Origin: Tubulanus polymorphus
Taxonomy: Eukaryota; Animalia; Nemertea
NCBI RefSeq assembly: GCF_964204645.1
Contig: NC_134026.1
Location: 581,950 to 645,949, forward strand
Direction of reading: 5' to 3'
DNA: 64,000 nt
A program made the position numbers and the translations under genes. This document shows, piece by piece, positions 20,283-45,029 of the stretch. The notes beneath the pieces were generated by a model. That model made no database searches and was not told the origin of the DNA. It saw only the letters and a list, made by a program, of their open reading frames with translations. The first letter of the stretch is position 1. Every line of letters begins with the position of its first letter.

Positions 20283-23200
20283 CTAGTCGGCAGAAACATC
20301 GACATCCGGTAATTGAGATGATTGCGATTGATTCTGTTGTGAATCGCACGGTTCCTCGTTCATCATCATCATATCATCATCGTCGATATCATCATCGTTA
20401 TCATTTAACGGATCAGTAGGTTTATTGGATACAGTTATAACCGCGTGACTAGAAGTATTATTCCCAGCTGCAGTAGCTGCTGCTGCAGCTGCTGTTGATG
20501 ATGGTGTCACAAAATGATCAAATAGCGTTCTCTGCAAGAAACAAACATATTTGTGATAATGAAATTATCCAACTCATCAAACATTAAACTTAGTACAGGA
20601 CAAAATAAGTTCTTTTTGTGATGGAAAAATTGAATCAGGAATACGTTTCTTTATACATGTAACAAACAAGGTTCTTACAGATCTGTGAGATCCTGGTGAG
20701 TTAGATTTAGTACATCGAAACCAAAATGTTACAAATATTCATTTTGGTTATGAAATAAACTCAACTTGTTTGAAATCAGAGAGGTTTGTATTTGAGGTGT
20801 TTTTACCTTTTTGCCGACGTTAGCCATCGCTTGATGCATGAACGTCCATTTACTGATAATTCGTACAACGAGATCTTTCACTTTTGTACAGTCGATCATG
20901 TGTACATTATCTCTTAATTCACTCATCAACGCTCGCATTATATCAGTTAATATATACAACGACTCCTGCATAAATTAACCATGAATTGTGTTAGTATCGA
21001 ATACTGAACTTAATCCACACTGACATTTCAGATACATAACTATCACTACCGTCCATCTTCACTGATTTATCTAAAAAGATTGATCTATGTTTGTGAAGAT
21101 GAATAGAAGTGATAGTAGTTATCAATCTGAAACATCAGTGTAACACATTTTTATGGTCCAATCTTCATGTGGCTGGTTTATTTTGGTCTCTTATACATCA
21201 GTCTACGTATAACTGGACTGTGCTTATATACATTCATATTTCACTCGAATATCTGATTATGACTTATCACTTAAAGCTTATCACCTACTACAGTCTATCC
21301 AAATAAACAAGAAATACTTATTTTAATTCAAGAGCATTGTGGGAACAGTCAAAATCGAATTTTAAATTCATTGTACTTGCTTTCGGTATGCAAATCTTTA
21401 CTGGTTTGGGTAACTCATTGTTACGATCGATCAAATTCTGGAATATCTGATCTAAATATTCTTAACACAAACCTTTTCATGTGGTGGTAACGTTTCATTG
21501 CCAACACTTAAATCAACGATCTGAACCATACTGTAAAGTCTATAGTAATCACCATCGAATTGATCTTTCAGATTAGCCAGTAGTGCATGAAGCCGTGATA
21601 CCTGAACAAACAATATCAAACATAACATTAGATTTCTAACATGTAATCCATGCTTATACAGAGACAATACTGACCAGATCCCGCCCCATGCTTAATCAGA
21701 AAGTGTGTTTACACATAAATCATTCACTTTTTACTGAGTTAGTATCTCAACAGAACCATTCACACGCAATCATTTGAACCGTGCTAAGAAGATAGATCAA
21801 ACAGGCATGGAAACATTTAGCACCAGTGTGATTGTCCGTGCCAGATTAGGCCCAGGCCAAATTAAATCCGGATCAAAAATGCTTGAGCTATAATGATCAC
21901 TAACCTTAACATCAACTCCTTCAGATGGGTTTCTAATATTTAACATTCTGTTAATCAACGTACAGTAAGCTACCGATCGTTGTAGTTTATATCCTCTCTT
22001 TCCGTGTGGCATCAGTCGAATTATATGCACTTGATTGTGATGATGTTCGCACAGAGTCGACAGTTTATTAACCAAAACTACAAACTGAATTAAAAAGAAC
22101 AGAAAACAACATTAATCGACGATCTAAAAATCCATAATAACAGTTCCGTAAATTATTAATAAAGATTCTTACATTTTCACTCCACGTTTCAGGTTTAAAT
22201 GCATCAATAATCATAGATAAACACACTTGAAAATCATATTTTAACACATCGCTGAAAATGGAGATAAGATAAACTTTAAGAATGGCAGAATCTGCTGTAA
22301 AATTTAAATGAAGACAAGATGTACAGTAAAACTTACTGAGTGAGAGTTTCATCGATGGCCACTTTACAGATAATGAGTAGAAGGGATATTAATTCATCGC
22401 TGCTGTACAGATGAGACCTAGAATAATACAGTGAAAACAATATAGATAAATACAATATCATCAAGTTAACACGAAAACCATAAAATTAACAGGGCTGGGG
22501 GTTAAATTGAACTCAATCTGGTAATTTCACATCCTTAGAACTGGCTTTTTCACAAACAAAATACAATTTTCGAACAATCGTAAAAGTGGTAAGTGATCAC
22601 AATCTGGAGAGATTTTGATAAAATTTCTTCATGTTTAGCACAGGCATAAATTCCTAAACCCGCAGTATATGGCATTCAAAGGGTATCGAAATATTTTTCT
22701 TGAATTTTTCATATATGTCCATGATATTCAGATTCTTATGAAGGCAATAAGCAGACATCCATTTGTAAAAATCTAATCACAAATTTCCACATGCATCTGA
22801 ACCCTGAAATGGTTTACTAACCTCTTTTGTACAGAATAAGCAATAATCTGTATGACTGATATCAAATTCTCCATTCCAAAATCATTTATCTCTTCTGAAT
22901 CGATATCCTGATTGTCAGATCTAAGAATGAATGAATGAATGAATGAAGTTATGAGTTGAATAGGGTTTTAAGTGTACATTGATTTATCAGATTCAAACTT
23001 ACTGCACACGTAATTCGGTTAAACCTAAATTATCCAACACCTCCACTTCTAAACCAAGACTTTCCTTGGAAGCACCTGAAACAAAAAAAGCTTATGTTGA
23101 AATAAAGAAATACTATCATTAAAATTCAGAAAGTTCAAATTCCACCAAATTCTTGGAATTCAGTTCCATGGGTCTCAGTTATGTGACTTAGAATTAAAGG

Positions 23201-26200
23201 GTTAAAATTAGTTCATTTCAAATATGTTAAAACTTTGAACCATGTTTACTGGCTTTCAGATCTTTTTTTAACTTAATAATTGCTCATCATAGTTGTACTA
23301 ACTGGTCTAATGGAAAACATAATTTGACTAACATTCACCAGATGGCAGTCAACTGCTATTGGGTACATACCGTAATTGATAAATATTTCAGCAATATGTT
23401 TGATTGGTGGAGCCCAGTCTTTACATTTATCGTCCATTAAAACGCGATAAAGAATGTGAAATCCAGCTCTAATAACATTATAATCTTCATGTATAGATAC
23501 TGTAATGTATAAAACACATAGAATCATTAGATCGACTCGACACCTGCCTCCATTAAAGAATCTATTTTCCATTAGTTTGCAGTTAAAGCCCTCGTACTTT
23601 AATGCGGGATAAGCAAATAAATCCTTAATATCAAATCCATAACATTGTTCCCACATTTACCGGGGGGTACACATGAATTCAAAATTCCTAAATTTTCAAT
23701 AAATATTTCACGGGTGATCTACAAAATATCAATATATCACAAAGTGGATCTATTTCATATTATACAAAACAGAAATAGGAGAGGAGGGAACAGAAAAAGG
23801 CTCTTAACCCAAACCAAGTTTTCACAGCCATATGACAATAACGCAACACTCACAACTCAGTCTCTCATACGTAAAATATATGTTTGAATATAAATTCAAA
23901 TACAAATTAAAATCCTATCTATTATTACAGTAGCAGCGTTGTTTAAATGATCTAAATATTTCACGGGTGATCTACAAAATATCAAAATATCACAAAGTAA
24001 ATCTATTTCGCATTAGACAAAACAGAAAAAGGAGATGAGGGAACAGAAAAAGGCCCTAACCCGAACCAAGTTTTCATAAGACACACGACAACAACACTCA
24101 CAATATATTCACAACAGTCTCTCATACGTAGAATATATGTTTGAATATAAAATTCGAAAACAAATTAAAATCTAATCTAAATCCTCTCTATCATCAGTTT
24201 AGTAGCGTTGATCACTGTGAACCGACTCTTACCTGTCTGAAATAACCAGTTTAGAAATGCGTTTGGAGTCGACAACTGATGAATACATAATAGAATAAAA
24301 TCCCCGTCTAAATACTGAGCGAGCATCGCTGCAATTACATTAAAAAAACACAATAAGATTTTTGAAGAAAGTTTGAATAATTATGGATTTACAACTCGAG
24401 CAGATGAGACTTACAATAGTCTAACTTGGCCAGACATTTATCGAGAGATGAAGTCGGTGATTTGGTAAAACCACAACTGTCTAACGTCAATGATTTTACA
24501 TCGAACACCTGTTGATAATTGTTCGGTATGAAGATCACTTCTCCGGGATGTTGTGTAGTGATTGTGCTAGCGTTCATTTGCAGCTGAATAAACGAAACGA
24601 ATATCGGCGTAGAGTGAAACGAATATCGGCGTAGAGTGAAACAAATATCGGCGTAGATCGAAACAAATACCGGCGTAGAGAAAATCAATAGATCGCATTC
24701 AGGAAATCTGCAATCTTTTTTATTCTTTCAGTTCCCTGCAGTGCACCCATCGTTATTGCGCCTGCCCAGCAGCGCGGAGTATGCATATAATTACTAATTA
24801 ATTAAAATCTCATAGATAGATGAGAGCATCAGGCAAACATATCAAACATCAATACCTTACACTACACCGCACTGAGGGGAAGATACAATATAGCGCAATA
24901 TGCCCATTATATAACGTACTGGGTTGGAATATTCCAAAAATTGTCAAATTATCACCAGCGCTTAAGGGTATGAAACTGTCAGCACTGAACGGATTTAACA
25001 AATCGAATATACGAACCTTCTGAAGCGCAGTAAGGTATTCCTCTCCAGCTGGTAGCTCATCTTAATAAGAGAACAAATCAAATTCGTTATTTGAAAATTC
25101 GGTATAAAATGAAAGTATTTACTGCACTGTTTGGACATGTGTGACAACGGCGTACAAAACGTCAGTTGTGAGGTGTGGTAATTTGATTCCAAACTTTAAT
25201 CCATGTTGGTAAAATAGAGAATATAAACACATGTCATGTTCGAATATAAAAAGTTCAGATCTATCATATTCAAATTTAAACATCTGAAATTCCAGGGTTG
25301 AATAGATTTTTTATACTAAACCATCAATCATGCTGATAAGGCTTGATATATATTTGTTTGAGGGAAGCATTGGATGGAAATATTGCGATTGTTTGAAACG
25401 AGATTGAACACTTACTGCTTTCTTCATCGAATGTCATGTTTCTAATGCCACCTTTCGCCAAATCACTTTTTAAATTAGCTTCCATCGGGCCGTACAGATT
25501 TTCTTTCTTTACCTAAAATATCAACATGTAATTCATGAATCTTCTTTACGACTGTATTACTCATTCAAAACACTCGATATAAACTGCATATCATGCGTCC
25601 AACAATTACTATCTTTACATCGTAAACTACAATTCATGCTATCGCTAGCAATAGCATCCAATCTAGGACAATTCAGAACGTTCATGCACCAAATCAGTGC
25701 ATTCACACAGATTCTTGAATCAACTGTTATCACTGGTCCAGCTAGACACAACACTGCTGCGAAACACGGGCAATTAAAGCAAATTGTGTCTATTTAGACC
25801 CACAGAAATGGTTCGTCTAAATAGGTCGGTTTGGATCCATTCAAAAATAGAACAGACCGAATTAGAACAATTTTTTCTAGAATGAATGCCTAGTCTATTC
25901 TGAATAGGAACCGTCTGAATTTCGAATGTTCTTAATAACAGTAGTATGAACGCGGCTATAGCAGTACGAATACTACCGATGCATTTATTCAAAGCCTAAT
26001 TTATGACAAAGTTTATGTTGCATCGAATTTCAACTCACCTGATTACGTTTATTTTCCAGCAATGATTCTAGCGTTATAGTTGTTTTAGAACTAGTTGAGT
26101 TTGACCATGTATAGGAATTACTATCGTCCAAATCCTAAAATAAAGCAATTTTCACTCTTAAAAATACGTGTACATAAATAGTAACTAATGCAGCCTGATT

Positions 26201-29200
26201 TTATAAGTAGATTAAGCGGAAACTCATTATAATGAAAGCAAGATGATTTAATCTATTACATATACTGGAACTTGATGTTTGTTGTATATAATTGCACAAA
26301 TTAAATTGCAAAAATTTAAAATTTTTTTTGTCATGAACGATATACATACAAATGATTTATCAGGACTTCGCGAGGAAGAATCCAAATTCTCTTCACTTAA
26401 TGATAATTTTCTGCTACTGAAATTTAAGGACATTACAAAATACTTTGATATATTCGATAAAAATAAAGTGAAATCCCACGATTGAAGTATAAATCTAGGA
26501 ATTGATTTTCATCGACGCCACGACAAAAATTTCAACGAAAAAAGAACTATTCAAACTTACGATGAATTGTTGTCTAAAATGGACGGTGCTTCCATCAAAT
26601 CATCATCGCTGTCATCAGAGGCCAACAGAGCATCATTGTCGCATAGATTTAAATCTATAATAGCAATTAAATCAACGGAATCGTTATCAAACAAGAGATT
26701 TAACTCTAAAGAGAAATCACGAGAATTTTCATCCAGAAAGTGTATCTAGTTTTTCAATGTTCTTCTCACCACCAACAACTAAAGCAACTAACCGTCAGCA
26801 AATGAGCTAATCCTATCACCACCACCACCGGCTCCACTACATTGATCTGAATCTGCTGAAACAGCAATTTTATTTTCGACATCTGCAACACAATCAAAAC
26901 AGCTGTTACAACATACAGTGGAGACATCTATTGTTTACGACGTGAAGTGCTGACATCAGCACACTGTTTTATAATAACGACATCAAAAATCAATACCAAA
27001 AGATTTGGGTTTAAATATTCTGCTTTCAGTTTAGAGTAGCCTAAATAGGTTAATAGGAGCCTCATAAATTGGGAATCAACCATTTGTCGAGGCGGGAAAA
27101 TTATAAATAACATTCAAAACCTATTTTTTTGTAATTTTTAACCACTGCCTGTTAACAGCCAGTGATTGATGACATATAGATGGAGACAACAGTTATTTGT
27201 GCACAAAATCTAATTCTAAATTGATCCATTTGAAAATGACAAATAAATTCAATTACAATCGTGATGGGATGAGGGAAAATTATGCTATGATTAGATATTT
27301 ATCAAAGTAAATCATGAATTAATAAAAATTCTAATCAGCACCATCTGAAAATCAGCATTCACGATTAAATGCATCATTACGAAATTCTTTTACCATTAAC
27401 TATTTCTGAATGCTGATGATGAGTAGGTGCATTTGAATTAGTTTATGCATGCGGCACAGTCTACAGTTACAATCACTGTCACAATTACCTTAAGTATATA
27501 TTAGTATTTAATTCATCTAGCTCATTAAATTATTCGGCTCGAACCCAGTTCTACATCTATGATTTTAAGTTTACTACGAATTACCGTTAAATAAGTGAGT
27601 CAAGTAAATTAAAGTAGAGTTGTAGAACTGGGTGCGGATTGAGATATCTACTGAAAGCACAGGCACCAAACCACAGCTTTTGTGATGGCACCGAAATAAT
27701 GAATATCATTTGAAACCATGCATTAACACGCACAGATGTTTCTGATTAAGTGAAAATCTTGTGAAGAGCTGCCAGGAAATCATTACACTCAGCACCAACA
27801 CTCAGTCTTACGTAGTCAATATTAGTTTCTTTTCCAATCATTGCGAGCTGAATTCTTAGGTTATTATCCTACGAAACCTCCAAAAACATTCAAGATTGTC
27901 TTTTTTGCTTGTATTTATCATAATTAGACTACCGGGGCGCTCTTAATGTAGAATATATTGAAACACGGAAGACCGAGATACAACTAACGACACCTAGTGG
28001 CATCCTCGTTCACCACAGTATCGTCGATTATTCTAACACTACACTCCACAAACCTCGAGTAAGTAAGAACACCACCAAACAAAACCGATTGTTTCCCGTT
28101 ACCAAAATACACAACGTTTCTACGCACCTTCAACAGTCGACAAACGAAATTCATCCCAGATATTGCGTGATTTATTGTCGATTCGAACGTCCGATAATAG
28201 AGGGCGTGACGATGTGTTTGTAGTCAGCTCAGATGTCGCGAGTGGTTTCGGTGAATTCGGTACACGCGCCCGATTATCTTTAAACAGCTTTTTCAGGTTG
28301 TTTAAACCGGCGAGTAGTTTGAGCGGACTAGTTTGAGGTGACGCGGTTCCGTCTTTCGTCACCGGTCGCGTCGGACTCTGCAGACGTGTGTGTTCTACGT
28401 CGTGTATCTCGAGTGATTGAAGCGAATCCTCCAAACAACCGAACACGCCGCGATCGTATTTCATTTTATCATCAATACTATCCACACTCGATTCCACACG
28501 ACTATCCACACTCGATTCCACACGACTATCCACACTCGATTCCACACGACTATCCGGGAGAGTTGGATTTGTATCCAGGAAACTATCCGAGCAAGTCAAG
28601 CTCGAATCCATGTGACTGTCCAGGTGAGTAGTGCTTGAATCCACGCGACTATCTGCGTGTGTCGCGCTTGAATCCACGCGACTATCTGCGTGGGTCGCGC
28701 TTGAATCCACGCGACTATCTGCGTGGGTCGCGCTTGAATCCACACGACTATCTGCGTGGGTCGGGCTTGAATCCACGCGACTATCTGGTCGAGTAGAGGT
28801 AGAAGCCGCGACATGATTTACTACCTCAGAAACGCGTCGTTTAAAATCAGTCGGATCAACGTGACTCAATTTCCACGACTTCAACAACTTGTTACTGATT
28901 TCGATCGCTTTGTCGCGAGTTGAAATTTCGCAGTCGTTCGTCTCTTTACAAACGTCATTAGAATGAGGAGCTGGTTGAACACCGCGTTCTATTGAGTCAC
29001 TGGAATGAGGAGCTGGTTGAACACCGCGTTCTATACAGTCACTGGAATCAGTAGAGTTCACACGAGTCTGCGATGAAACGATTGAATCAACCGTCGCCGT
29101 GGGATACGCTATGATATCATCGGTAATATGACCCGTTAATTCTTCTTCTACCGCGCATTCGATACTACGATCCTCAAAAACAGGATCAGAAATGTTTGAA

Positions 29201-30830
29201 GGTATTTCTAGAGGAGTAACAGTTTCGCTATGATCCTTATCGGTCATTTTCACATCGGTGTCAACATTCTCATCAATTACTAAATTGTCATAATTAAAAT
29301 GGAACAATTGTTGCTGCTGCTGCTGCTGCTGCTGCTTACATTCACTGAGATCATCACGTTTACCGATCAGATCACGCGAGATATTATTATCACCAATTTC
29401 TTGTGATTGAGCTGCATTATCTCTATTATTATCATCAGACCGAGACAGGTGGTGACCTCTATTGTTTCCTCGATCTTTCTTTCTCTTACGTTCATGGCTT
29501 CGCGAGTGTCTACGATTGTGCTTCGGACATTTCTTACACTTCGAGTTGTCATCGTCATCATCATCATCATCATCATTCTCAGTGGCTTTAACATCTTCAG
29601 TAACTGGTAAATCATTCTTCTCCTTACTTTCTTCATCTTTAATGTCGCATTCGGGTTCTTCCGCCTCGGGTTCTTCGCTAGGTTTATCCACGGATAGTCG
29701 TTGACAAACTGTACTCAGCTCTGAAGTTGCATTGTTCTCTTCTGCTGGAGAGTTTTTCTCGATATTATCTGTTAATTTTGTTGGAGATATAAGCGAGCTG
29801 CCGGTTAGAACTTTAGATACATCGTCCATATTCTTTATAACGGGCGATAAAAACTGAGCGGGCAGAGAAGGAAATCTAGTCGGGACGTGAGATGAAGGTT
29901 TTGTATTGTGTTGCCGCTGCCGATCGGGTCGGAAAAACGGTCGATCGTTAAATTCACCGCCGAACGGAGGTAAAGACGGTCCCATCGCCAATAGGGGGCG
30001 TATTCTCGAACGGGGAAAGTTCTGATCGTTGTTAGGCGTGAAAAGCGACGGGATATTGTTGCGTTGCTGTATCCCGGCGCTGTTCGTATTATCGATAAAA
30101 GATTGCGAAGGAACATCGCGGAATTTCCGTTGAAAATTGCGCCTCTGTTTACGGCTCCATCCCGGTTGAGGATAGCGCGGAATTTGATCGGCAAAGTTTT
30201 GACGGAAGTTTGGTCGGTTTGGTTGCCATCGATTTTGTGGTCGAGGCCACTCATTGTTGCACCCATAGGGATTTCTAAATCTCCATCTATTATTATCATT
30301 ATTATAATTATCATCATTACTATAATAATTGTTGTTAAACTTCATTTTTCTGCTGTTTCTACTATGTATGTCGAAAGCTAATTTCTTTTTTTTATTTTCT
30401 AATTCTCAGAGTGGAGGCACTAGCAACTCAAATCATACGTAGCCATAAAATATCAGAGTCTGGTCCCGGTTGAGTTTGTGTTGAACCGATGTTGAATTCG
30501 TTCGTTTAGAAAATTTTAGGTTCAAAGTAAGACCAAGTTTTCGGTCGGGTCTGAAATTAAGACACCAAAAAACTCTCGAATAATATCAATAATAACTCAT
30601 CACTTTTGAGACCATCTTATTATTAGTTTATGAGATTATAAGAATGATTAAAACTTACCTTTCTTGAATAACTTAGCGGCAGATTCTTCGCTGAAAAAAG
30701 GATAGTCAATAAAGTGAATTTGATTTGAACTTTAAGATCGTCATCAAAACCGATTGATAAATGACTGATTCATTAAAATATGATTAAAGGCGGCTAACCT
30801 AGATAAACAGTCGCTACTTCTTCTTTTCAT
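20283..30830 (-). CDS. SLF2: SMC5-SMC6 complex localization factor 2 (FAM178 family)
   Basis: Many phase-consistent exons. FAM178-type motifs HPGEVIF, NWLFQTVSIHED, WAPPIKHIAEIFINYG, LRDNVHMIDCTKVKDLVVRIISKW and RTLFDHF. The 5' structure is uncertain: small exons 30830-30799 and 30690-30659 and/or a large exon 30345-28128, all joining 26882 in phase 1. Confidence 0.85.
23701..24210. repeat. Local tandem duplication (~250-bp unit, 2 copies) in an SLF2 intron
   Basis: AAATATTTCACGGGTGATCTACAAAATATCAA... begins at 23701 and again at ~23954, with diverged continuations. Confidence 0.9.
24592..24682. repeat. 21-bp tandem repeat, ~4 copies
   Basis: AAACGAATATCGGCGTAGAGTG-like units immediately upstream of an SLF2 splice acceptor. 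Confidence 0.85.
28476..28790 (-). repeat. Coding tandem repeats in the 741-aa exon (11-aa DSRVDSSATHA and 8-aa DSRVESSV units)
   Basis: 33-bp and 24-bp units are visible in both the DNA and the translated ORF 28120-30345. Confidence 0.9.
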
Positions 30831-32385: not shown

Positions 32386-33601
32386 TAGAAATCCATCGTT
32401 GGGCGATAACTCGCTGCTGCTGGCTCCACAACTGCATCTGTGGTCGTCTAGCTACTTCTGGTTGTTGTTTACCAATCGAAGACCATTATTTCCAGGATAG
32501 AGTTTGGCTGAAATAAGAAAAAACAGATCACCCTTTGAGGCAGACCATCCTAATAAGCATTGATTATGATTCACAAATTAATTTTGATTATACGGTTGTC
32601 ATCTACCAATCATGGACCATTATTTCCAGGATAGAATTGTGCTGAAATAAGTCAAGAAGAACAACATCCTTTGAGGCAGACGATCCTTACAAGCATTGAT
32701 TATAATTTAAACGTTAATTTGAATTATACGGGCTGCCATGCTTTTTTTGTAGGGGAGAAATTCATCGGAAATTTATTGCGGCTTAAGACCACAATAATTA
32801 ATACATCACTGTTTATGACTAGTGACAATAGAATATGAGGCTGAATATAAGGTAACTGGCCTTTCTACACTTCAATACTCAGCCAAGAATATTCATATGA
32901 GACCTAACGAGTAATATTAGAGCAATGATTGTTTTAGATTTCAACTCACTAATAACCATATACCGGCCACAGAGCTTCAATCTTCAATCACTTTATAGTA
33001 AAATTGAGAACTTCACCAGCTTCTCTGTTCTCTCCAGTGCTATACGCATCCTGCCCTTGATGCTAACCCAGAAATGAAAAATCAACTTAGCTTTTTATCA
33101 AGACGGCCAGGTTCAGTTTCGAAAGGTCTCTTGGTGTTTTATTGTCGAGTTTAATTTAAGCTGGAGTCGGTGGTCGCTTCTGGTCGGTAGGATCTAGATG
33201 GCTAATGTATCTCATGCTGGGCCTTTCCAGATTCATGTTAGGCTGAAATGAGTAAATGAACGACATTTCTGTGGTCATACAATTCTTTGATCAATTGTAA
33301 TTGACATGTGTATCAACTTATCTTTCTTAAGATTGCCGAGCATCCTTTTTTCATCGTCCTATGGTGTCCACGTCATCTTCTTAATCATGGTGGGCCTGTT
33401 CAGATTAAGTTTACCTAAAATGAGTAAAAAAGGCATTTTGTAGTCAAACAATTCTTTGATTAATTTTAATTTACATGTGTATCAACTTAACTTTCTCAAG
33501 ATTGCCGAGTTCAGTATCGTCATCTTCTGTCCTCTTGGGGGCGTCGTCGTCTTCTGGGGTGTCCTGAAATGAAAAAAAGAACAGAGATAAAAACCTGGTA
33601 C

Positions 33602-34372
33602 GGAACAAAACTAATGTCCGAAAGCGTCGGATGCCCGACGCCGGTCATGTGCAGAGAATACCAGAAAAAGAATCAGCCAGGAATTCGCTGCCCTCTACAC
33701 GCCCTCACACAGAACGCGAAAACCTGAATGACAACGCCTCACGTTCACCATCTAACCACAGGGTGCACTGGGCGATGTTAGTAATTGACACACCTGTAAG
33801 ATTGTTCAAGACAAAAATAGAGCAGTACAACCAGATTGCCCGAATTGAGATTCAGGATCTCAACTAGCACTCAAAAGCGTGACAAGAGACTTCATCCACT
33901 GACCGAGGTTGTCACAAGGACACAATGAAACTAGCACTCACAAGCCGACAAGAGACTTCATCTACTGACCGGGGTTGTCACAAGGACACAATGAAAACTA
34001 GCACTCAAACTAGAAATCAAAGAGCGTGACAGTAGAATCATCCCTCAGCCAACTCAGAATACCAGAAACAAAGAGCGTGACAGTAGAATCATCCCTCATC
34101 CGGGCGGTCACAAGGACACAATGAATGCTAGTAGCGTGACAATCCAGTATAACCACTCCATTTGTATCCCGCGCAATCCCACAGATATGCCCGTCATTGA
34201 CATCACTCAGCGCACTTTGTAGATAGGTGGGGGCAGTGAGGCCTCGTCATCCTGGTTTTCGTGTTCCGTATGAGGGCATGTAGAGAGCAGCATTTCCTGA
34301 CCGACTCTTTTTCTGACATCCTCTGCACATGACCGGCGAAGGGGCCGACGCTTTCGGACATTAGTTTTGTTC
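33602..34372. repeat. ~190-bp diverged inverted repeat pair (33602-33790 / 34195-34372) enclosing short direct repeats
   Basis: GGAACAAAACTAATGTCCGAAAGCGTCGG...GCCGGTCATGTGCAGAG at 33602 is the reverse complement of 34320-34372. The spacer has GTCACAAGGACACAATGAA x3 and AAAGAGCGTGACAGTAGAATCATCCCTCA x2. Confidence 0.9.
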
Positions 34373-35390
34373 CATAGAACGTTGAAAATCGACAGAAAAA
34401 TCGGCCCTGAAAAATAGAACAAATTAAACGCTGAAAAATAGAACGGATTAATACACAGAACTGAACAGAACACAGAACAGAACAGGACAGTGCGGAGACG
34501 AACAGTAACACGTAAAACATAAAGACGTCGTTCCTCATGAAGGAACCAGCTTGTAGAGCGCAGCGTCATCGCGAGGAAGAACGCCAGGAGGAGAATCCAC
34601 GTCAGCATAGTGTCCGCACGGTGTGAAGAGCCTGAGGTGAATGACTGGCTTAGCGATTCTACTTTCTGTCGACCGGTGGCGTATTTCAATAATGACCAAT
34701 AGGCAGCCACGCTTTTGTCTTCTGATGAATGGGTTTACTGAAGTTTGTGGAACGTTCTGCGCTGATACACACGCGGGGAGATCGTGACGTCACCTCGGTA
34801 TACATCCAGTATATAGACCGGGCACTGACCATTCAAATATTGATGTATAGAAATATCTCTGAACACATTTGCATTGTCGAAGTTACCGCATGATAAAACA
34901 CTACGCGACGTCACCTTTGTACACCCGGCATATAGAATAAACTTTTTAGAAAACTAATGATTAAAGCAAAAAATTAAATACTGATCCAAATGCTTCGATG
35001 ATGCCCATGAAAATAATCTGGTCGTTTTCAGACCCTCTTGGTTGCAACGAAGTGTAGATTATCATTTACAGTTCGATGATGGACGATTGTACAACCGGTA
35101 TATGTAATAAAAAGCAAAAAATATCGACCAACTTAAGTGAACGTAAATCTTGAGTCAAATGACGGACGCAGTTGAAGGCTACTGAAGGTGGCCGGTCTAT
35201 TTTCTAAATGAATATAACGACCGCCTGAGATGGAATGTTTGACCGTCCAATACTCGGGAATTCTCATATGTCGGTGCTTTGAAATGAAACCTCAAAACAG
35301 GCGCGGTTCCAGAGGGGGTTTCAGGAGTCGTGACCCCCTGCTCAGCAACCAAAAAAGAATTTTAATCGTTTCCTTGAAAGGATGTACTAA

Positions 35391-35437
35391 TGCACCCGTC
35401 AATGAAATCCCTGTACCCCCCCTATATAGGCATTCGA
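35391..35437 (+). repeat. Left terminal inverted repeat
   Basis: TGCACCCGTCAATGAAATCCCTGTACCCCCCCTATATAGGCATTCGA, an exact reverse complement of 43063-43109. Confidence 0.97.
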
Positions 35438-35778
35438 CATAGATACGACTCATACGACTGTCATTCGACCTCGTATGCCTTACTAATAAAATTCCACTGC
35501 GATCGTTTGAAAGTCGTATGTCTCTCTTCAAAACAGCAAAGATTTTCGAATGGATATCGAGTTGCAAGCGAATGGATGTCTAATGGTGCATAGATGAAAG
35601 CGATTGGATGTCGTATGCCAGTAGAATGCATTTCATGATTTGGGATTCGAACCTTATACATTTGATTAGACTGGTTCCGTCGATTCTGTTCAGAACTGAA
35701 AGTAGAGACCGGGGACCAGTCTAACATAGATGTCGCATCTATACGGACAAGTTCAATCCAATTTACGACTCATCCAAA

Positions 35779-38700
35779 ATGGCTGAACTTGCCGAATTGC
35801 CGATGAGGTAATTTCTTTTTGCTTTTGGATGCATGTGATGGCAACTTCTTTATGAATTGTTATAGACTACTTTTAAACAAGAATAAGTAATTAATTGATA
35901 TGTGCAGCGTCAGATAAGCGGGCGTGGCCGTCACCATCCTCTACGTATCAGATTTAATGCAAGTCCCAATCTCAATATTCAATTCAATTCAATAATAAAA
36001 ACTTTAATGATTTCATTAGAAAAAGTCATGTCTAGGCCTATATTTCTTATATTTCGGTGTTGGTAACTAGACTTTGGATCAGTTTCACGATTGGTATTCT
36101 TATACAACCTAATAATAATCATGATAATAGTCCAATGGCATAAGTCTAGTATAAAAAAGGCTACCTAGTTTTTCAGCCTGGTAATGGTAGGCCTATTGGT
36201 AATCCCTGTGTGTTGGATTGGTAATCCCTGTGTGTTGTTGATTTGATTGTTGCTTACACCCCTGCCAGAACTTTGTAAAGTATGATTCAAGGGTCGGTTT
36301 TTTTTATCCTCTCCTTCACATGCAAGAATAAGATACATTTTCATGAAACTCTGGACTCTCGTCTCAGACGGTATCTCAATGTGCAGGCCTAGGCTTATTA
36401 TTGGAGATCCCGTTGTCATCTGATTAATCAGTTGCTCCCTGTGGTGGAAATTTTTAAACTATTTGAAGTTTTAAATTTTAGATTTCGTCGTATATGGAAC
36501 GCCCCTATAACATATCTGAAAACATGGTATTAACTTATAAATTTTTTTCAGGTTTTTCCGGGTACAAATTGGAGATGAAAGGAAAATAATGAAAGTAACA
36601 TGTTACGACGAAATCGTCCAAAAAGGTATCTAAATGTCACTGACATTAGTATTACATTGTACAATATCAAAATCACCATAGAATTAGGCCTATAGTTGAC
36701 ATAGCTTCATGGCTTGAATTTCATACTATTCTGAGAATATCGCTGATGATTATCCTTTGGTTTCCTGTACCTGTTACATGAGCCAGCCACCAAAATTATC
36801 TCTAATAGGCCCACTTTAAGATTTCTTCTATATAGGCTTAATATGTTCATTTTTTAGCTGCGTCTAAGCTGAATATAGAACCGCAACATGTAAGAGTATA
36901 TCTCTCAGATAGAAAAACTCAAATAGATGACGAATCATTCGATGTCATTGCCAACGACAGTGTTCTCGTTATCGATGATATAACTACATGTACAGTGAAA
37001 GAAGATTCTAGTACTACATGTGGTAGCACCATAATTCTAAGTGAAGATGAAGGTATGTGTTCAAGGCTCCATTAAAATTCAGATAGGCCTATGTAGGATA
37101 AACTGCATCCGTTTGATTTGTATATTTTGTGTCACGTTTTTGTAGAACCCTTTGAGATATTGTCATGAAACTTGGTACACATGTTCAGGGTGATCCCTGT
37201 TGTTTGCTATTTAGATTCAAGTTGATTCGATTATCGGTTGCGCCACCTTGTTGGGACTTTGTATTTTGTGATATATATGATACATTTAAATATAGGCCTA
37301 CAATGTATTTTGATAAATGTGATATATTTTCTGTATTTTTTCTCATATTGCAGGTTCTGACCCTATTCTGGAGCCGAGACCAGTCATGTTGTTGAAACAA
37401 CAAAAATTACCATACAATTTAATGTCATGGGTACAGAAATCTTCAAAGATATATCCTGAGACGGGAAAAAATGCGAATTACTATAAACAGATTAACAAAA
37501 CGTGTGAGGGATTAGCTTTAGATCAACCAGACCTATTGGATAAAAAAGGTGAATTATTAACTAAGGCAAGAAAAATTGTGAATGAGACATACAAATTTCA
37601 GAAAGGTTATACCAAATCAAAATTGGTAGAGAGACCCGAGAATCCAGGAAAACGAAAACGGTGGCTTAATAACGCTGTAAGGGCTGAGGTCAAAGCTGAA
37701 AAACTGAAAAAAGTTGAACATTTGGAAACAGACATTAAAATTTTAGAGGGCTCGTTAAAGTCAAAAATTGCCCATGAGAAATGGGAAGATGCCCAGTCTA
37801 TTCAGGATAAAATTAAGGTTTTATCAAGTGAAAAATTTGGGCTTATAAGAGAATGCAACTTAATCAACAAAGCTGAGAAAAAAGCGAAAACTGACAAAAA
37901 GTGCTTAGCTAAAAGGAAGTCCTGTACTATTACAAAGCCGAGTAACAGTACCAGTGGTTCATCTGATGATATAATTCCTCTTGACCAGCAGCTCATTCCA
38001 GAAGCAACTTCAGTGATAGAGGTTGCTACAACCGATATTCAACCGAGTACTTCTGGCCATCAGAGCGATCACAACTATGTGGACTTTTCTGTCAATGAAT
38101 ATCACAATGATTATGATACTGATGACCAGGTAAGTCAGAGTTTATATTATTCTGAACGAAGTGTTGTTCCTCTCATTAATGGTGATGTCAAGATCTCTCC
38201 ATTTAAAAAATTAACATTGGATAAATTCATATCAGTAACAAGTTCCATTTGCAAGTCAGAAAATCATGAAAACTGTTCTTGCCCAGAGAAATTAAAAGTT
38301 GCTCAATATATCTTACAAAATCAGCCTGTAACCATGGAACAGATTAGAAATGTTTGTAAAAAGAATTTATCACCCCACAATTTCGATATGTTCTTGTTAA
38401 GATTGCCTGTAGTTATTTTGACATTAGGAAGGGATAATCTCGGTGTTGTTATCAATGGTGCAACCACCAAATACGTAGTAGAAAAAGATCCAGAGATCGA
38501 TTACTCCAAGCTTTATTTAACACTAGAAAAACTAGGGCTGATACAGAGGCAGAAGCCAACATCCTCGTTTACTGGTCTTACCTTAGAAAAACTAAGAGAC
38601 TTGAAGGCACTAGCATCTTCAGAAATTGATAGACAACTGATTTCCTATGCAGCCACTGCTGGTCTAGGCACTCGTAAGTCGAGAGAGATTCTTCATGTTA

Positions 38701-40844
38701 CCACTGATAAGAGGCGCATAGATGAAGCCATATTCGAGCATAAGAAATTGGTTGGTATTTATAACAAGTTAGCCATTTGTGAAGACAAAGTATTTCTCAG
38801 TGCCAATGGTATCAGTGATGATGAAAACTTACTGTATAATATGGACTCAGACACAGAAATAGGGAGTATTGTTGATGAGGATTCAGACAAAAATGATGGC
38901 AATTTGGAGGACAACTCGTTTCCTTTGGAATTAAGTAGCTCATCATCCGAAGAAGAGACTGTCAACTGGTCAAATATGGAAGGTGTATCAGATCCTACTT
39001 TCCGTAGTATTGTTATTAATCATCGTAAGAAGATTAAAGCTAAAATGCAGCGACGCATTCAGCGCAAAAAGTCCGAAATGAGAACATGTGGGCGTAAATA
39101 CAGGAGGAAAGCTAAAACAATACTACAGCGACATCCAAACATTGGACAGTTCATAGAGGAATGCGTCAGAAAATCAGGTGTGGGAGCTGATAAGTGGAGA
39201 TCCTCCGGAAGCCTTACATGGGAAAGAAAACACGTAGGACAAAAGATGACATTCGAGAAACTACGGAAAAAAGTGTCTGAAGAAATTAATGAAAAAATCA
39301 GTCATGGGACATTAGTCCAGTTATGTTATCCAAAAAATAGAAGGAATAAATCGGCTGAAAGGTATAAAGGGGTGGCAAATATTCGAAGCAGGAGAGCCAG
39401 GAAGGGGTTTGACATCAAGCTCAATGTCGATGAAAAATGGTCAAACGCTCTTTATAAAAGTCTTGACACCCTTCAAAAAAATAACCCCAAGGAAATACTC
39501 TACATAAACCGTGACGACACAACTGGTCACCGACTGGACACCTTGACCACATCAGCAAAGCACAGATCTTTGATGGTTCAAGACAACGTAGACATGGCAA
39601 CCAGGACTGATTTTACAAATAAAGAACAGTCAGTAATACAAACTTCATCATATTATTTTGCTGGGCACAATGATTCTACTGTTGATGATCAATATGCTGG
39701 TGTGGTCAAGGCTGTCAAACTTACAGCGAAAAATGCATCTCAGCATAGTGCAGACCTCAGAATGTTGAAAGATCAACCAGAATTTAAAGGCCGTTTCGAT
39801 AAACCCATTGATTGCATACGCGTTGATGGGGGCAATGATGAAAGTCCTTCTCACCTAGAGAATCAGTTCATCTGGGCCGAATGGCACTTGGAACAAAGTA
39901 AGTTGGTAACCATGGTAACCACTCGCTGTAGTGGAAACAGTTATTTAAACGAGGTTGAGAGGCTGAATGGAGAAATCGGCAGGGCAGCAACTAATCTATT
40001 TATTCCATCCAACATTCTTGGACCAAACAAAAATCCTCAAACAGGAAAGATAGATGATGAAATGGTTGCCAGAAATCAACGTGCTGCTGCAGACTATTAT
40101 GTTGAACGTGTAAATGGTGCTTTATTTAACAACAAGCCTATACTCATGTATAATTGTGCCACAGATCAAAGGGCAGTTGATTATCAGGAACGCAGGGATT
40201 TACTCCTTAATTTTCTGAAATCTGGAACTGAAGCGAGACAGCGGTTAATTGATCAAAGCAATGGCCAAGAAAGCGATTTACTCAACCATTTTGCTGATGT
40301 ATGTAAAATTATGTCTACACACCAAGTTCAACCTTCCTCCAAGTACACCTATATTCTCATGTGCTGTTTCCAAAAGGAATGCATTCATCCAATGTGCAGC
40401 AGATATTCAGATAAGAAAATTGAGGACTTCTCTTGGTTCAAAGATGGCCCTCCTATAAACTTCATACCGTGGCCATTGAAAGATGAGCAACGCTTACCTG
40501 AAATGTGCAACAAATGTAAGCCAGTATGCACGGGACACTATCTACAATGGGACAAGTTGTATGACATATGGCGTACCAACCAGAAAATAGATCCAAATGA
40601 TACTTTACCCAGCGAAGTATTGAAAAACTATTTCAAAAATGTAACCAAAAAGATTCGAGGGCACGCACAGGTGAAACCAGTTGATTTCCAGATAAATGAC
40701 CAAAAAGCCAAGGAGCTAGCTTCACGCCTCTGTATCAGCGAAGCAATGGTCAAATATGAAATAGAACATCTCAGGCTTGTAGCTATTTCTAGGTCTCAAG
40801 GAGCTATTCAAGCTGCATTAACACGAGCAACTCGTAGGGATTAA
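35779..40844 (+). CDS. Spliced ~1262-aa DDE transposase (Zator/TP36-like core) with CIDE-N-like and NCD2-like N-terminal domains and a Cys/His-rich C-terminus
   Basis: Exons 35779-35807, 36552-36625, 36858-37052 and 37354-40844 join in frame. Putative catalytic motifs YINRDD (39513), IRVDGGNDESP (39825) and YLNEVERLNG (39957), giving D(43)E spacing. Confidence 0.85.
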
Positions 40845-43062
40845 AAGTTTTATAAATTTTAAAGGTTAAATTATCAATATATATGTTATTATGATAGTAT
40901 GGATTTCTATACCATTGACAAAGAAATTCTGTGATTGTGTGCATGGACCCGACTTGAATATTTTGGAAAAATGTCAATGTTTTCGGATAGTCCTGAAGAT
41001 CCTGTAAAAAATATTTTGGATATGTGGAAATTGGTTCATGCATCGGGTCACTGAAACCCATCATCCTCTATAGCTTAATAATTGGCGGTAAACTGATGTG
41101 ATTGATTACTGTCATTTATTTTGATTTCAGACATGGGCATGATGTGGTAAACAAAGACCTTTGGAGCCTCGTATCAACCTTAAAAAGTTGTGACTGTCTC
41201 AATTTTGTCAGTTGATGGTTCAGAATCACAGATTTATACTATTCTGGCTTAGGATTAAGCATTTTTGAGCCAAAATGGGCATTTTCTGTTTTGGCGACAT
41301 ATTCGCCTCTCAGGGAACTGCCACCTATACATGTATGTTGTGCAAGGATCGTGCACTTAATTTTTATTTCCAGCCCAAAATGGATATTTTTTTCTTTTCA
41401 TAATTTTGGTGACGTAACTTCTCAGGGAACTGTGAGAATACATGTATTATGTAATGCTCTTGAATTCTAATACTGAGATTAGTGTATCATAACCTTGGAT
41501 GTGAAATTCTGTATTGTGAAGTGTAGTGTTACCATTGGTTTAATATCCGTGATGAACAGTGTGAGGAATCTTATTAATTGTATACTATTTGATATCTCTT
41601 TTATATTCTGCATTTGAGCATATGGTAGGGGAAGATGAGTAGAATCGAAAAAGGGTGATACTTACTCATGACCAAGGATTCAACTGTTGCCTGCCGGAAG
41701 TGGGATCTGCTAATTGGGTAAATTTAAAGTTCTTGGTTAAAGTATTATACGTACTCTTAACATCTATCAAAACAAGTGACAAATTTAAACAGTTTTAGCC
41801 TATGCATTTTTCTTGAACTGTGAAATTGTAGATGATAATACGTTCTGGCAGGAAACAGTTGAAATTTAAATAATTGATAATTTTGCATTTAACCAATTAG
41901 AATACAATAAGATTTGTTGAATTTATATTTTAATTTTATAAAAGTAATTTTATGATGCCCCAATGGGGATTCATTTTAATAGATGATCAATAAAGTTTCA
42001 TACGGTAGTTATATTAACTCTAATTTTCTGACAAAGAAATTTTTCATTCTGCTGACACAATGCAGGAAGTTGTGTCAACCAAAATCGGTTAAAATGAGAA
42101 ATAATTAACTCCTTGCATTGTGTTTCGGCCCTATTATGATAGAGACATCCAAAAATTAGAATTAAGAAATTAAATTTGAAATCAACTTTGCCAGAAGCTC
42201 TGTAACTTTCTAGAGATTGAAAACTATTGTAGTATAATTTAAATCATTTCATGTCTCCATCATAGAAAGGTGGTTAGGGTGCTTCATCGAGCCGTGGGCC
42301 AGCTGTACATGCATTAGTATACGCATCTATTATAGTGAAGAGGTAACTATAACTAAAATATCATCAAGACAACAATATTCTTTGAATTTTATTATCTATC
42401 TAATGGATATACAGCATCATCATCAGAGCAGAATAACTCGATGATTATAGCACAACGAAGGTTAGTTTGATGAATGAGATATTATTCTAGTAGCTTTCAT
42501 CAACTGGTTGTCCAAGCATCTAGCAAGAACAACAAGCCTCTAGGATATATATCTTCGTAATGTAGCCTTGTGTTTATCATTTGCCAGAAATAATTCATGA
42601 ACATTTTGGGGCAATTGTGATAAACACCCACTGAAATGAAGAAATGATATGTATTAATTGGCCAGACTAGAGCCCCTAGGCTACATCACTGCAAAAATGG
42701 ATGGATGTTAGTGTTATTAGTAGCATGCTGAAAAGGTAGGGTTTTGTTTGTTATCTGCTGGAACTGCTGGCATGAAGAATCTAATCAGCTAAGATGCGGC
42801 TATGTGCCCCTGCCTCGGGGTCATAGAAGATGATGTCGAATACCTGTAGAGTATGCCTCTTTAACTGTTCTACTAGGCCTGCTATGATCGCATGACTGTC
42901 GAATGGCCTACACAGGTGATTATGATGTTGAGTCGAACCATGAGCGAATGGCATGTGTAAGTTATATGGCAAGGAATCTTACACTGGTAGAATACCTGAC
43001 TATTTAAAATCACACTCTGGTGAAGGATTGTCGAATGCCTGACGTATGAAAATTATTTATAA

Positions 43063-43109
43063 TCGAATGCCTATATAGGGGGGGTACAGGGATTTCATTG
43101 ACGGGTGCA
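43063..43109 (-). repeat. Right terminal inverted repeat
   Basis: TCGAATGCCTATATAGGGGGGGTACAGGGATTTCATTGACGGGTGCA followed by TAA. Confidence 0.97.
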
Positions 43110-45029
43110 TAAAGACAAAGCGGGCGAACAATCGGTACCATATCGCTTTATGTTTGGCCAAACAATATGCCGTATAGGTCCCCTATCTGAGATTTTAGTC
43201 GGAAAATCTTTATGAACCCCTCCTGGAAAAAATCCTGGATTTAAGTAACGTTCCATTGCACCAACAATACCTTAGATCTATTTGTATAAGCCTATTCGAT
43301 AATACAGGCGGGATCTACATATATCTAAACCATTTTGGAAATTTGGGGTTTTTAATACATAATGAAACACCCAACGCGATAAAATCCCACAAAACAATTT
43401 TCCTTGATTATTTCGACTTTATCCTTAAAATCATCTTCAGATAATAATTTTGCTGTAACTTCTGGCTTCACGTCGGATGGTGGAATGTTATTGAATATTG
43501 ATACTAAAAGGCACGGTTTACAATAAAGTCTCAATAACGAATGCATAGAAAAATTCACACAAAAAGATAATCCTCGCCTGCCAGGGAATACTCCACTCGA
43601 CAATCAAGCCAAAGAAGACGAACAACTTATTTTTGCATAAATTTATTCTTGTCGTCATCTCTTACAGATATTCAAGGATGAACATATTCTATAAATGCAT
43701 CTGAATTTCAATAACATATTTCAAGTTCTATAAAACAATTGTTATCAATCTTATATATACATATATAATATAATATAAACTAATCAAACTATTCCAAGCG
43801 TATGGAATGTAAAAATATACAACTTTGAATATTTGACGATCTCTAACTATTACTACTAGTTTCATGCTGTCATTTCTCAGAAGATACTTCCATAATTCGA
43901 ACGCTAAACGATATTTTCAATCTAATAATTCATTTACACATTTATCATTCACATGCGCATTTAAAATAATTCCATTCAAAACAATTAACATAAAACACGT
44001 GGACTTAGCCGTTTGAATACGGGCACCAGTTTGACAGTTCTGAGTTAAATAAGTTTCTACGGTTCTTTTACAAATATTTGAATCAGGACTATAGAACTGG
44101 GTCCAGTTACAAAATAGAATATTCGTCTCAATTTTCTATACAACACAGAGTATTGAAATCTTTAGCAACTGAAGCACGACTAGGAAAAATAATGAATCGA
44201 AATTATAAGAGTTCTAAATTTTTTAATTCATTCATCTATGGCACTTTTTATCAGCTTGGAATACACAAAGAATTTGGAAAGAAATTCACTTTTTTATCAT
44301 AAAAATGTCACCGCGAAAGCAACAAAACTCAAAACGTACAACAGTTTTCATTTTTTCAATAATGAATGAATAATCATTGTGAAAATATTCGACAATATTC
44401 ATTAAATTTGACAGCTACAAACATTAAGAGTCAGCTTGCCACAAAGGAAAAATATCAAAACGAACACATTTACATTTACATGCAAAAACAGAGACAAAAT
44501 ATTCAAATGAACATCATTCATTTGCACATAAAGAATAAAATAAAAGACAAGATTATTCTTTTAACTAAAAAGGCTAATCATACGAAATTCTTGATTTAAC
44601 TTCAAAATGCTTTCAATTCATACAGTCATTTTAGTTTAGAAAATAACATTTCCCATAGTATTTTGTCAAAACATTAACACTATTGAGTTAAGTCTCAGTT
44701 CAGGGACCAGTAGCACAAAAAAGAAAACCTCAAAATTTCGGTTTAATTGCTATTGGTTATTACTTCAGAACAGCAATTCTAGGACCAGGGCTTGGTTGTG
44801 TCCAGAAAAGTCATAATTTTGCTTTGCGAAACTGGCCCCATGAATGTAAACTGCTATGTAAAACGTTCAAATACAAAATACATATTGATAATAATTAAAC
44901 AAGAATTGATTGCGAGACACCGTTAGAGGTGGAAGCTCTTACGATATTATAAAATCACTTGTGAATCATCAATAGATTAAGAGTATCACTGCATTATGTG
45001 TCATGGATGATGAATATTATTCTATTTGT

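Follow-up and report, generated by a model that had tools for sequence, protein, structure and literature searches.

A spliced, expressed Zator-like transposon gene of Tubulanus polymorphus with a probable CIDE-N head

Zator transposons have termini that begin 5'-GG and a transposase with DD43E spacing. In the available sections of PMC7386202 and PMC8533490, Zator is related to bacterial TP36, and amphioxus Zator-1 is described with 3-bp TAA/TTA target duplications (PMC12905397, accessible part); terminal features of Zator were not found in the accessible text of PMC4455052. Bacterial IS elements, LTR retrotransposons and one domesticated yeast transposase are well-known users of programmed frameshifting. 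In IS1, the InsA/InsAB' ratio governs activity, and transposition rose about 1000-fold when the frame was forced (available portion of PMC12428005), while the frameshifts of Ty are treated in PMC7175516 (sections available). CIDE-N domains (PF02017) are otherwise known from host apoptosis and lipid-droplet proteins; CAD/DFF40, ICAD/DFF45, DREP2/4 and CIDEA/B/C carry the domain N-terminally, as does the protein described below, and CIDE domains assemble into filaments on which the CAD nuclease depends (PMC8891305 and PMC6292858, each in its available part). The accessible text of the Hydra genome paper counts 10 and 7 CIDE-N copies against 1-3 in other cnidarians and ties no element to them (PMC7642931). 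Here we describe a domain of this kind as a recurring part of mobile DNA transposons, starting from one window, by which we mean the whole analysed stretch of 64,000 nt from the nemertean Tubulanus polymorphus (NC_134026.1, positions 581,950 to 645,949).

Structure of the element and splicing of its gene

The element spans 35391-43109 of the window (7.7 kb). An inverted repeat initially placed at 35383-35437 and 43063-43117 resolved to perfect terminal inverted repeats (TIRs) of 47 nt, bordered by a TAA target site duplication (Table 1). Contigs of the flanking DNA join about 35322-35356 to 43130-43149 and depth is high at the flank, which suggests that the element was inserted into a short abundant repeat; the flanks at about 35299-35387 and 43113-43240 look like two halves of one such repeat. 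The long ORF inside the element (1173 aa from stop to stop, 1152 aa counted from its ATG) has no Pfam match, and a search that scored 7991 candidates returned 106 homologues at 29-45% identity, none of them named a transposase. D-43-E spacing is present in 41 of 44 aligned rows, and the core was modelled with an RNase H fold at pLDDT 80. Mos1 was the top Foldseek match of this model (E 2.7e-03, with none at E ≤0.001) and led again in VIA-align (Z 8.6, rmsd 4.1, 192 aligned), where retroviral integrases tie within 1 Z. With its TIRs, TAA target duplication, RNase H fold and DD43E core, the element has the features of a DDE TIR transposon of the ITm group, which confirms the transposase context in which the earlier note had placed three hidden upstream exons.

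Target duplications read TAA/TAA in the window and in the related loci L020 and L021, and TAA/TTA in L010 (three of the four exact), in agreement with the 3-bp TWA of Zator. Termini of the form TG[C]-purine-C are shared by the window and by every one of the 10 motif-bearing loci; because the ends begin TGC and not GG, we file the element, on these sequence features, as a Zator-like DD43E TIR transposon and not as Zator. The nearest named Atlas clusters of the core are DDE_Tnp_ISAZ013 (ISAzo13/TP36 transposases; 0.87 and 0.85, under 0.9), a likeness that is a lead only. No TP36/ISAzo13 Pfam match was found in 38 family members, and tblastn against plasmids gave two matches, both irrelevant. The 39 pattern matches in viral contigs included no relative of the transposase, and Rfam gave no match over 35300-43300.

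Table 1. Coordinates of the element's features in the window
Feature	Position	Strand	Remarks
Left target site duplication, TAA	35388-35390	.	same TAA at 43110-43112
Left TIR	35391-35437	+	47 nt, perfect; begins TGCACC; similar ends in L010, L020, L021
Coding exon 1	35779-35807	+	ATG; 29 nt; phase 2; in RNA contig
Exon 2	36552-36625	+	first half of CIDE-N-like domain; in RNA contig
Exon 3	36858-37052	+	second half of CIDE-N-like domain (to about 36979), then acidic Ser/Thr linker
Exon 4	37354-40844	+	long ORF; unites the family's ORF1 block with ORF2 in a single frame
Conserved ORF1 block	37422-37910	+	NCD2-like helical region, then charged helix (coiled coil by eye)
G GAC TTT	38081-38087	+	likely counterpart of the relatives' slippery site; in frame, no hairpin (z -0.2)
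Donor-like site CAG/GTAAGT	38127-38135	+	only match in the ORF to the scanned pattern
DDE core	39513-39959	+	D 39513 (or 39516), D 39825, E 39957; DD43E
Right TIR	43063-43109	-	partner of the 47-nt left TIR
Right target site duplication, TAA	43110-43112	.	copy of the left TAA

The three introns upstream of the long ORF have GT donors and T-rich AG acceptors in phases 2, 1 and 1. Joined, the exons give an open frame of 1262 aa; with the borders moved by one base, the joined exons hold 84 stops. In run X4, a single contig of 988 nt carries all three joints exactly (35807/36552, 36625/36858 and 37052/37354), each of them GT..AG, with a shortest flanking side of 34 letters. This evidence comes from one RNA run, as contigs and not as reads, and X1 to X4 all belong to one study; the spliced contig stops at 38036, short of the catalytic core, and the genomic frame is continuous onward. 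X4 can be taken as RNA because it has canonical joints in host genes (at least 12 in two genes, among the 15 rows listed out of 51). None of the three window junctions occurs in the contigs of X1, X2 and X3 over 35000-43500. Runs X2 and X3 also have none of the 12 host-gene joints, their contigs cross exon borders, and they look like DNA; X1 has the whole element in one flat contig of 7685 nt, introns included. We regard the splicing of the three small exons onto the transposase ORF as almost certainly real. The earlier note had drawn these exons from the letters alone, and the junctions that it predicted stand together in the X4 contig.

Three further observations concern the transcript. The donor-like site of Table 1 has the consensus form and lies 45 nt past the junction fixed in frame at 38081-38087; to judge from its sequence, splicing there could give a short ORF1-type product. 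No joint from this site (38130) occurs in the X1-X4 contigs, X4 having no listed cover at 38124-38691. A change of G to T at 37851 in X2 and X3 creates a stop at codon 266, within the ORF1 block, and marks one broken allele or copy of the element. Finally, the 2.2 kb between the stop codon and the right TIR (40845-43062) hold no long ORF and are covered by X4 contigs, as either a long 3' UTR or further small exons.

Elsewhere in the window, two spliced host genes are seen in X4, at 18011-19330 (+) and 20531-23369 (-), the former with repeated glutaredoxin domains (Pfam 21.3 bits in one exon). A tandem array of about 15 units of 60 nt lies at 7351-8251, a low-complexity ORF of 761 aa, with tandem repeats of 33 nt and 24 nt and free of Pfam matches, at 28120-30405 (-), and a Quiver/Ly-6-like exon at 56181-56705 (-; Pfam QVR 18.5 bits, under cutoff). 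The inverted repeats at 33592-33683 and 34294-34383 bound an element of ~800 nt that contains direct repeats and is covered at very high depth; it is likely a MITE.

Identity of the head and its exchange among relatives

Taken by themselves, the window exons do not reveal what the head is. Exons 2 and 3, scanned separately, have no Pfam match (PF02017 cutoff 23.5 bits), a PDB sequence search with exon 3 gave two chance matches, none CIDE-like, and the Atlas leads for the 40-aa half are CIDE-N, SUMO, DCX and Par3-N, all under 0.9. None of the 106 homologues, which are mostly single-exon gene calls starting near residue 360-380 or later, matches the first 75 aa of the window protein, and no database protein with a CIDE-N joined to ORF1 or transposase was found (0 of 106, and 0 of the 21 scanned of 25). 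A protein search for the spliced transcript, made with the amino acids from 37356-38036, likewise found none among 431 candidates scored. When 42 aa of exon 3 were used in a representative search, the one match, a repeat protein of 5028 aa, was rejected as an artefact of summed weak repeats.

The relatives are more informative. The best 80 of 105 related loci include seven in which a CIDE-N peptide lies upstream on the same strand. Six of the seven exceed the Pfam cutoff of 23.5 (59.6, 39.0, 37.0, 34.8, 30.2 and 28.8), L002 scores 22.7, and in L012 and L020 the CIDE-N lies inside the TIRs. All 12 PDB matches of the L026 domain are of the CIDE family (ICAD, DFF45, DREP2, CAD, CIDE-A), with ICAD as the best (E 1.3e-06). 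A profile of the relatives' second half ranked window exon 3 first of 2035 six-frame window peptides (E 0.0022), hhalign paired exon 3 with the relatives' CIDE-N at a probability of 69%, and a two-half profile made without the window gave the spliced window domain 31.1 bits, against 17.4 for exon 3 and 2.4 for exon 2 alone. Out of 5000 shuffles scored with the relatives-only profile, none reached 31.1 bits (4826 reported, maximum 10.4). Five of the seven CIDE-N relatives also have a phase-1 AG acceptor at the codon of the window's exon 2/3 junction; in L012 and L020 the donors match too, in L002 there is only one base of context, and L026 is without the intron. Because the relatives-only profile scores the spliced head at 31.1 bits, we consider the window N terminus very probably a diverged CIDE-N; its beta-grasp fold would follow from this homology. 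The CIDE-N identity proposed in the earlier note is therefore upheld, by way of the relatives' profile and the shared intron. Its picture of a captured module stays plausible but loses its singularity: since seven related loci carry an upstream CIDE-N, some with the same intron, the domain is a trait of the family and not a one-off capture by the window copy.

Other domains fill the same position in some relatives. Where more than 600 nt precede the ORF1 block (21 loci), we counted six CIDE-N heads, four of a different, putatively ubiquitin-like domain, one SAM_4 and nine loci without an assignable module; L023 was left out of this head check and takes its label in the tree from its identity to L022. 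The replacement head of L017, L021, L022 and L036 (three families) is alignable among all four loci. It models as beta-beta-alpha-beta-beta-beta (best pLDDT 82.7, the others 52-66, one of five models above 70), and its Foldseek matches, each with E >0.001, are to ubiquitin, PB1, RA and DIX folds and include non-polymerising ubiquitin folds; the models thus suggest a ubiquitin/PB1-like fold. The head of L003 is a SAM_4 (25.7 bits, cutoff 23.6). The upstream peptide of L010 was considered as a further SAM, being SAM-like by eye, and was set aside for want of Pfam support. An unrooted FastTree phylogeny covered 32 cores, namely the window, P0001-P0003 and 28 of 29 picked loci, the remaining one being too short. 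In it, the CIDE-bearing loci are scattered and the other ubiquitin fold is nested among them, while the window and P0001-P0003 group on a long branch with support 1.0. By this sequence evidence the head slot is modular, with CIDE-N apparently replaced by other domains in some lineages.

A short motif ending in L/I-G-P is conserved between head domain and ORF1 block in many relatives (L008, L010, L012, L013, L014, L017, L018, L020, L022, L029, L037, L066 and L071) and was not noticed in the window protein. An ORF upstream of the element in L056 (L056:2-907) is tyrosine-recombinase-like by eye, and the L021 element (L021:1713-3938) sits inside a TRIM-NHL gene.

The ORF1-ORF2 junction in relatives and in the window

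Downstream of the head, Pfam NCD2 exceeds its cutoff in P0109-P0111 and reaches 24.3 of 25 bits in L003, with no match in the window. The ORF1 block (window 37422-37625 and relatives) resembles NCD2 of the NAB co-repressors, a sequence likeness that may link the transposon family to a host domain. At the C-termini (P0005-P0106), a PHD finger is found in 21 of 38 aligned proteins and a weak homeodomain match in seven; the window protein has no PHD match and ends before any PHD (40401-40841).

In none of the 30 loci with both ORF1 and ORF2 do the two form a continuous ORF. They overlap in the -1 frame in 21, a layout that the earlier note had missed; the other junctions are -1 with a gap (three), +1 (five) and in frame with intervening stops (one). 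When five gapped copies (L032, L049, L056, L066 and L068) are left out, NNT TTT occurs near the ORF1 stop in 24 of 25 loci, and in 21 of these 24 as a canonical heptamer (G GAT TTT, A AAT TTT, G GGT TTT or T TTT TTA). From the heptamer onward, 20 of the 24 are open in the -1 frame. Over the next 70 nt the median fold z is -2.7, with 16 of 24 loci below -2 and eight without a strong hairpin, compared with a median of 0.33 and 4 of 100 below -2 in control windows. The hairpins start about 6-8 nt 3' of the heptamer, where a stimulatory structure is expected at about 5-9 nt, and their stem sequences differ between families; L012:4306-4375, L020:2944-3000 and L026:1491-1530 are examples (from loci within L002-L071). 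After four near-duplicates were dropped, 19 of the 21 remaining loci had a heptamer within the final 11 codon positions, versus 29 of 471 background windows, a contrast whose binomial value is overstated since the loci are kin, and whose heptamer class was fixed after seeing the data, with GGA/GGT/GTT variants known from viral sites. As an independent line, 15 of 25 database ORF1 proteins end in Phe. The relatives thus combine a -1 ORF open from a heptamer of the X XXY YYZ kind with structure 3' of it, and we think it likely that they use programmed -1 ribosomal frameshifting.

Many junctions read TTTTAG or TTTCAG, so that in the relatives the T-run and AG could instead be an acceptor by which alternative splicing, and not a ribosomal slip, joins ORF1 to ORF2; the NCBI gene model P0129 does join both ORFs. 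Pyrimidine content does not settle the matter (0.53, where five real acceptors have about 0.62). However, the phase of the first AG is mixed (2, 9 and 9 of 20) and the AG lies up to 36 nt off, which weakens the acceptor reading, and the open -1 frames and the spacing of the hairpins also tell against it; we consider it quite unlikely.

The window itself has no -1 signature: ORF1 block and ORF2 lie in a single frame with eight in-frame heptamers, and the -1 frame is open for at most 6 codons. The D-F-S-V encoded at 38082 precedes the ORF2 profile by 32 aa, compared with 17-58 in relatives. The site at 38081-38087 likely marks a slip that became fixed in frame.

Possible roles of the head and comparison with known systems

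Taken together, we read the locus as a spliced, expressed gene of a Zator-like transposon whose CIDE-N head is likely the element's own self-assembly module, and give this reading a probability of about 0.55. The earlier note had proposed two roles, in transpososome assembly or in contact with host CIDE proteins. PB1 and SAM domains polymerise, and because the head slot is filled by three such folds, self-assembly is preferred over the binding of one host partner. In the relatives, most ribosomes would stop at the end of ORF1 and yield an abundant short protein composed of CIDE-N or another interaction domain, the NCD2-like part and the helical region, while a minority would slip by -1 at heptamer and hairpin and produce the full transposase with the same head. 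By way of the common head, the short protein could enter one assembly with the transposase, serving as its scaffold or holding it in check, as InsA does in IS1. In the window lineage the slip has likely become permanent as an in-frame fusion, so that every translation would give the full enzyme; its CIDE-N head would then mainly gather transposase subunits at the two transposon ends.

It is conceivable that the head instead addresses the host. If it served as a decoy for host CIDE proteins (CAD/DFF40, ICAD/DFF45) or as a module for docking to them, it would damp the apoptotic nuclease or borrow that nuclease's chaperone. Heterotypic CIDE-CIDE binding is established (PMC8891305, available part), and ICAD is the best PDB match of the L026 domain; yet a specific host partner would not predict unrelated folds, SAM and the other ubiquitin fold, in the same slot, and the window copy is strongly diverged, so that we hold such docking to be unlikely. 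Similar doubts apply to a head that targets chromatin instead of assembling the enzyme, together with the relatives' C-terminal PHD finger. The CIDE of DREP4 binds histones H1 and H2 (again the available part of PMC8891305) and the PHD match is common in the family, but it is missing from the window protein, whose head domain is net acidic overall (10 K/R versus 13 D/E), a charge that neither shows nor excludes histone binding; we rate chromatin targeting rather unlikely.

A decaying vestige without a role would be in keeping with a domain below Pfam detection on a long branch that has lost frameshift and PHD too. Against this, the three introns are still spliced in frame, the CIDE-N pattern is kept in both halves, and the sole listed variant in exons 1-3 is silent, which makes decay improbable. 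The fusion of a host CIDE gene to a domesticated transposase finds some favour in an expressed, intron-bearing gene and in the single flat contig of X1, but all exons lie within perfect TIRs and a target duplication, inserted in another repeat, and the same layout recurs in other TIR elements (L012, L020); we consider it highly improbable. Self-assembly remains our preferred reading of the head.

It is tempting to speculate further, if tentatively and against somewhat adverse odds, that the family is a new animal cut-and-paste lineage on retrovirus-like logic, with a programmed -1 frameshift that leaves the full transposase far outnumbered by a short ORF1 protein able to form polymers, and with a swappable self-assembly head (CIDE-N, PB1-like or SAM) shared by ORF1 protein and transposase. 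If true, the transpososome would have a filament as its base or its brake, and the window copy would be a natural frameshift-fixed mutant; the elements would also form a CIDE-N reservoir, perhaps behind expansions of the Hydra type or the origin of the CAD nuclease head. A transposon-borne CIDE-N reopens the question of the domain's origin and of how invertebrate CIDE-N counts should be read, and frameshifting elements would look broken to annotation pipelines. The family offers ready test pairs, of frameshifting versus in-frame copies and of CIDE-N versus other heads.

In a literature search that lay outside most subscription papers, Repbase Reports and supplements, we found no report of a CIDE-N in a transposase and none of frameshifting in Zator-like elements or mobile animal DNA transposons; PMC3417536 has CIDE-N in its reference list only. 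The transposon family may already be catalogued in Repbase Reports or supplements. Within the ITm group, Zator/TP36 (ISAzo13, PF07592) is alike in its 3-bp TAA/TTA duplications, Mos1-like fold and DD43E, but Zator TIRs measure 33 bp and begin GG, whereas those of the window measure 47 bp and begin TGC, and we did not find the spliced CIDE-N head, the ORF1 block, the PHD tail or the -1 junction described there. IS1 resembles the relatives in pairing a short N-terminal protein with a -1 transframe transposase by means of a slippery site and downstream structure (PMC12428005, portion available). However, it is prokaryotic and slips at an A6C site, and its InsA is a DNA-binding repressor, whereas the predicted short ORF1 protein of the relatives has interaction domains in that place. 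KAT1 of Kluyveromyces is a eukaryotic transposase regulated by programmed frameshifting, like the layout predicted for the relatives (accessible text of PMC4316626), but it is a domesticated hAT of yeast, whereas the relatives are apparently mobile animal TIR elements. The CIDE-N of CAD likewise stands at the head of a nuclease, whose function requires the filaments that the domain forms (available part of PMC8891305); CAD and its kin differ from the window, where a CIDE-N below Pfam detection would head the DDE transposase of a mobile element.
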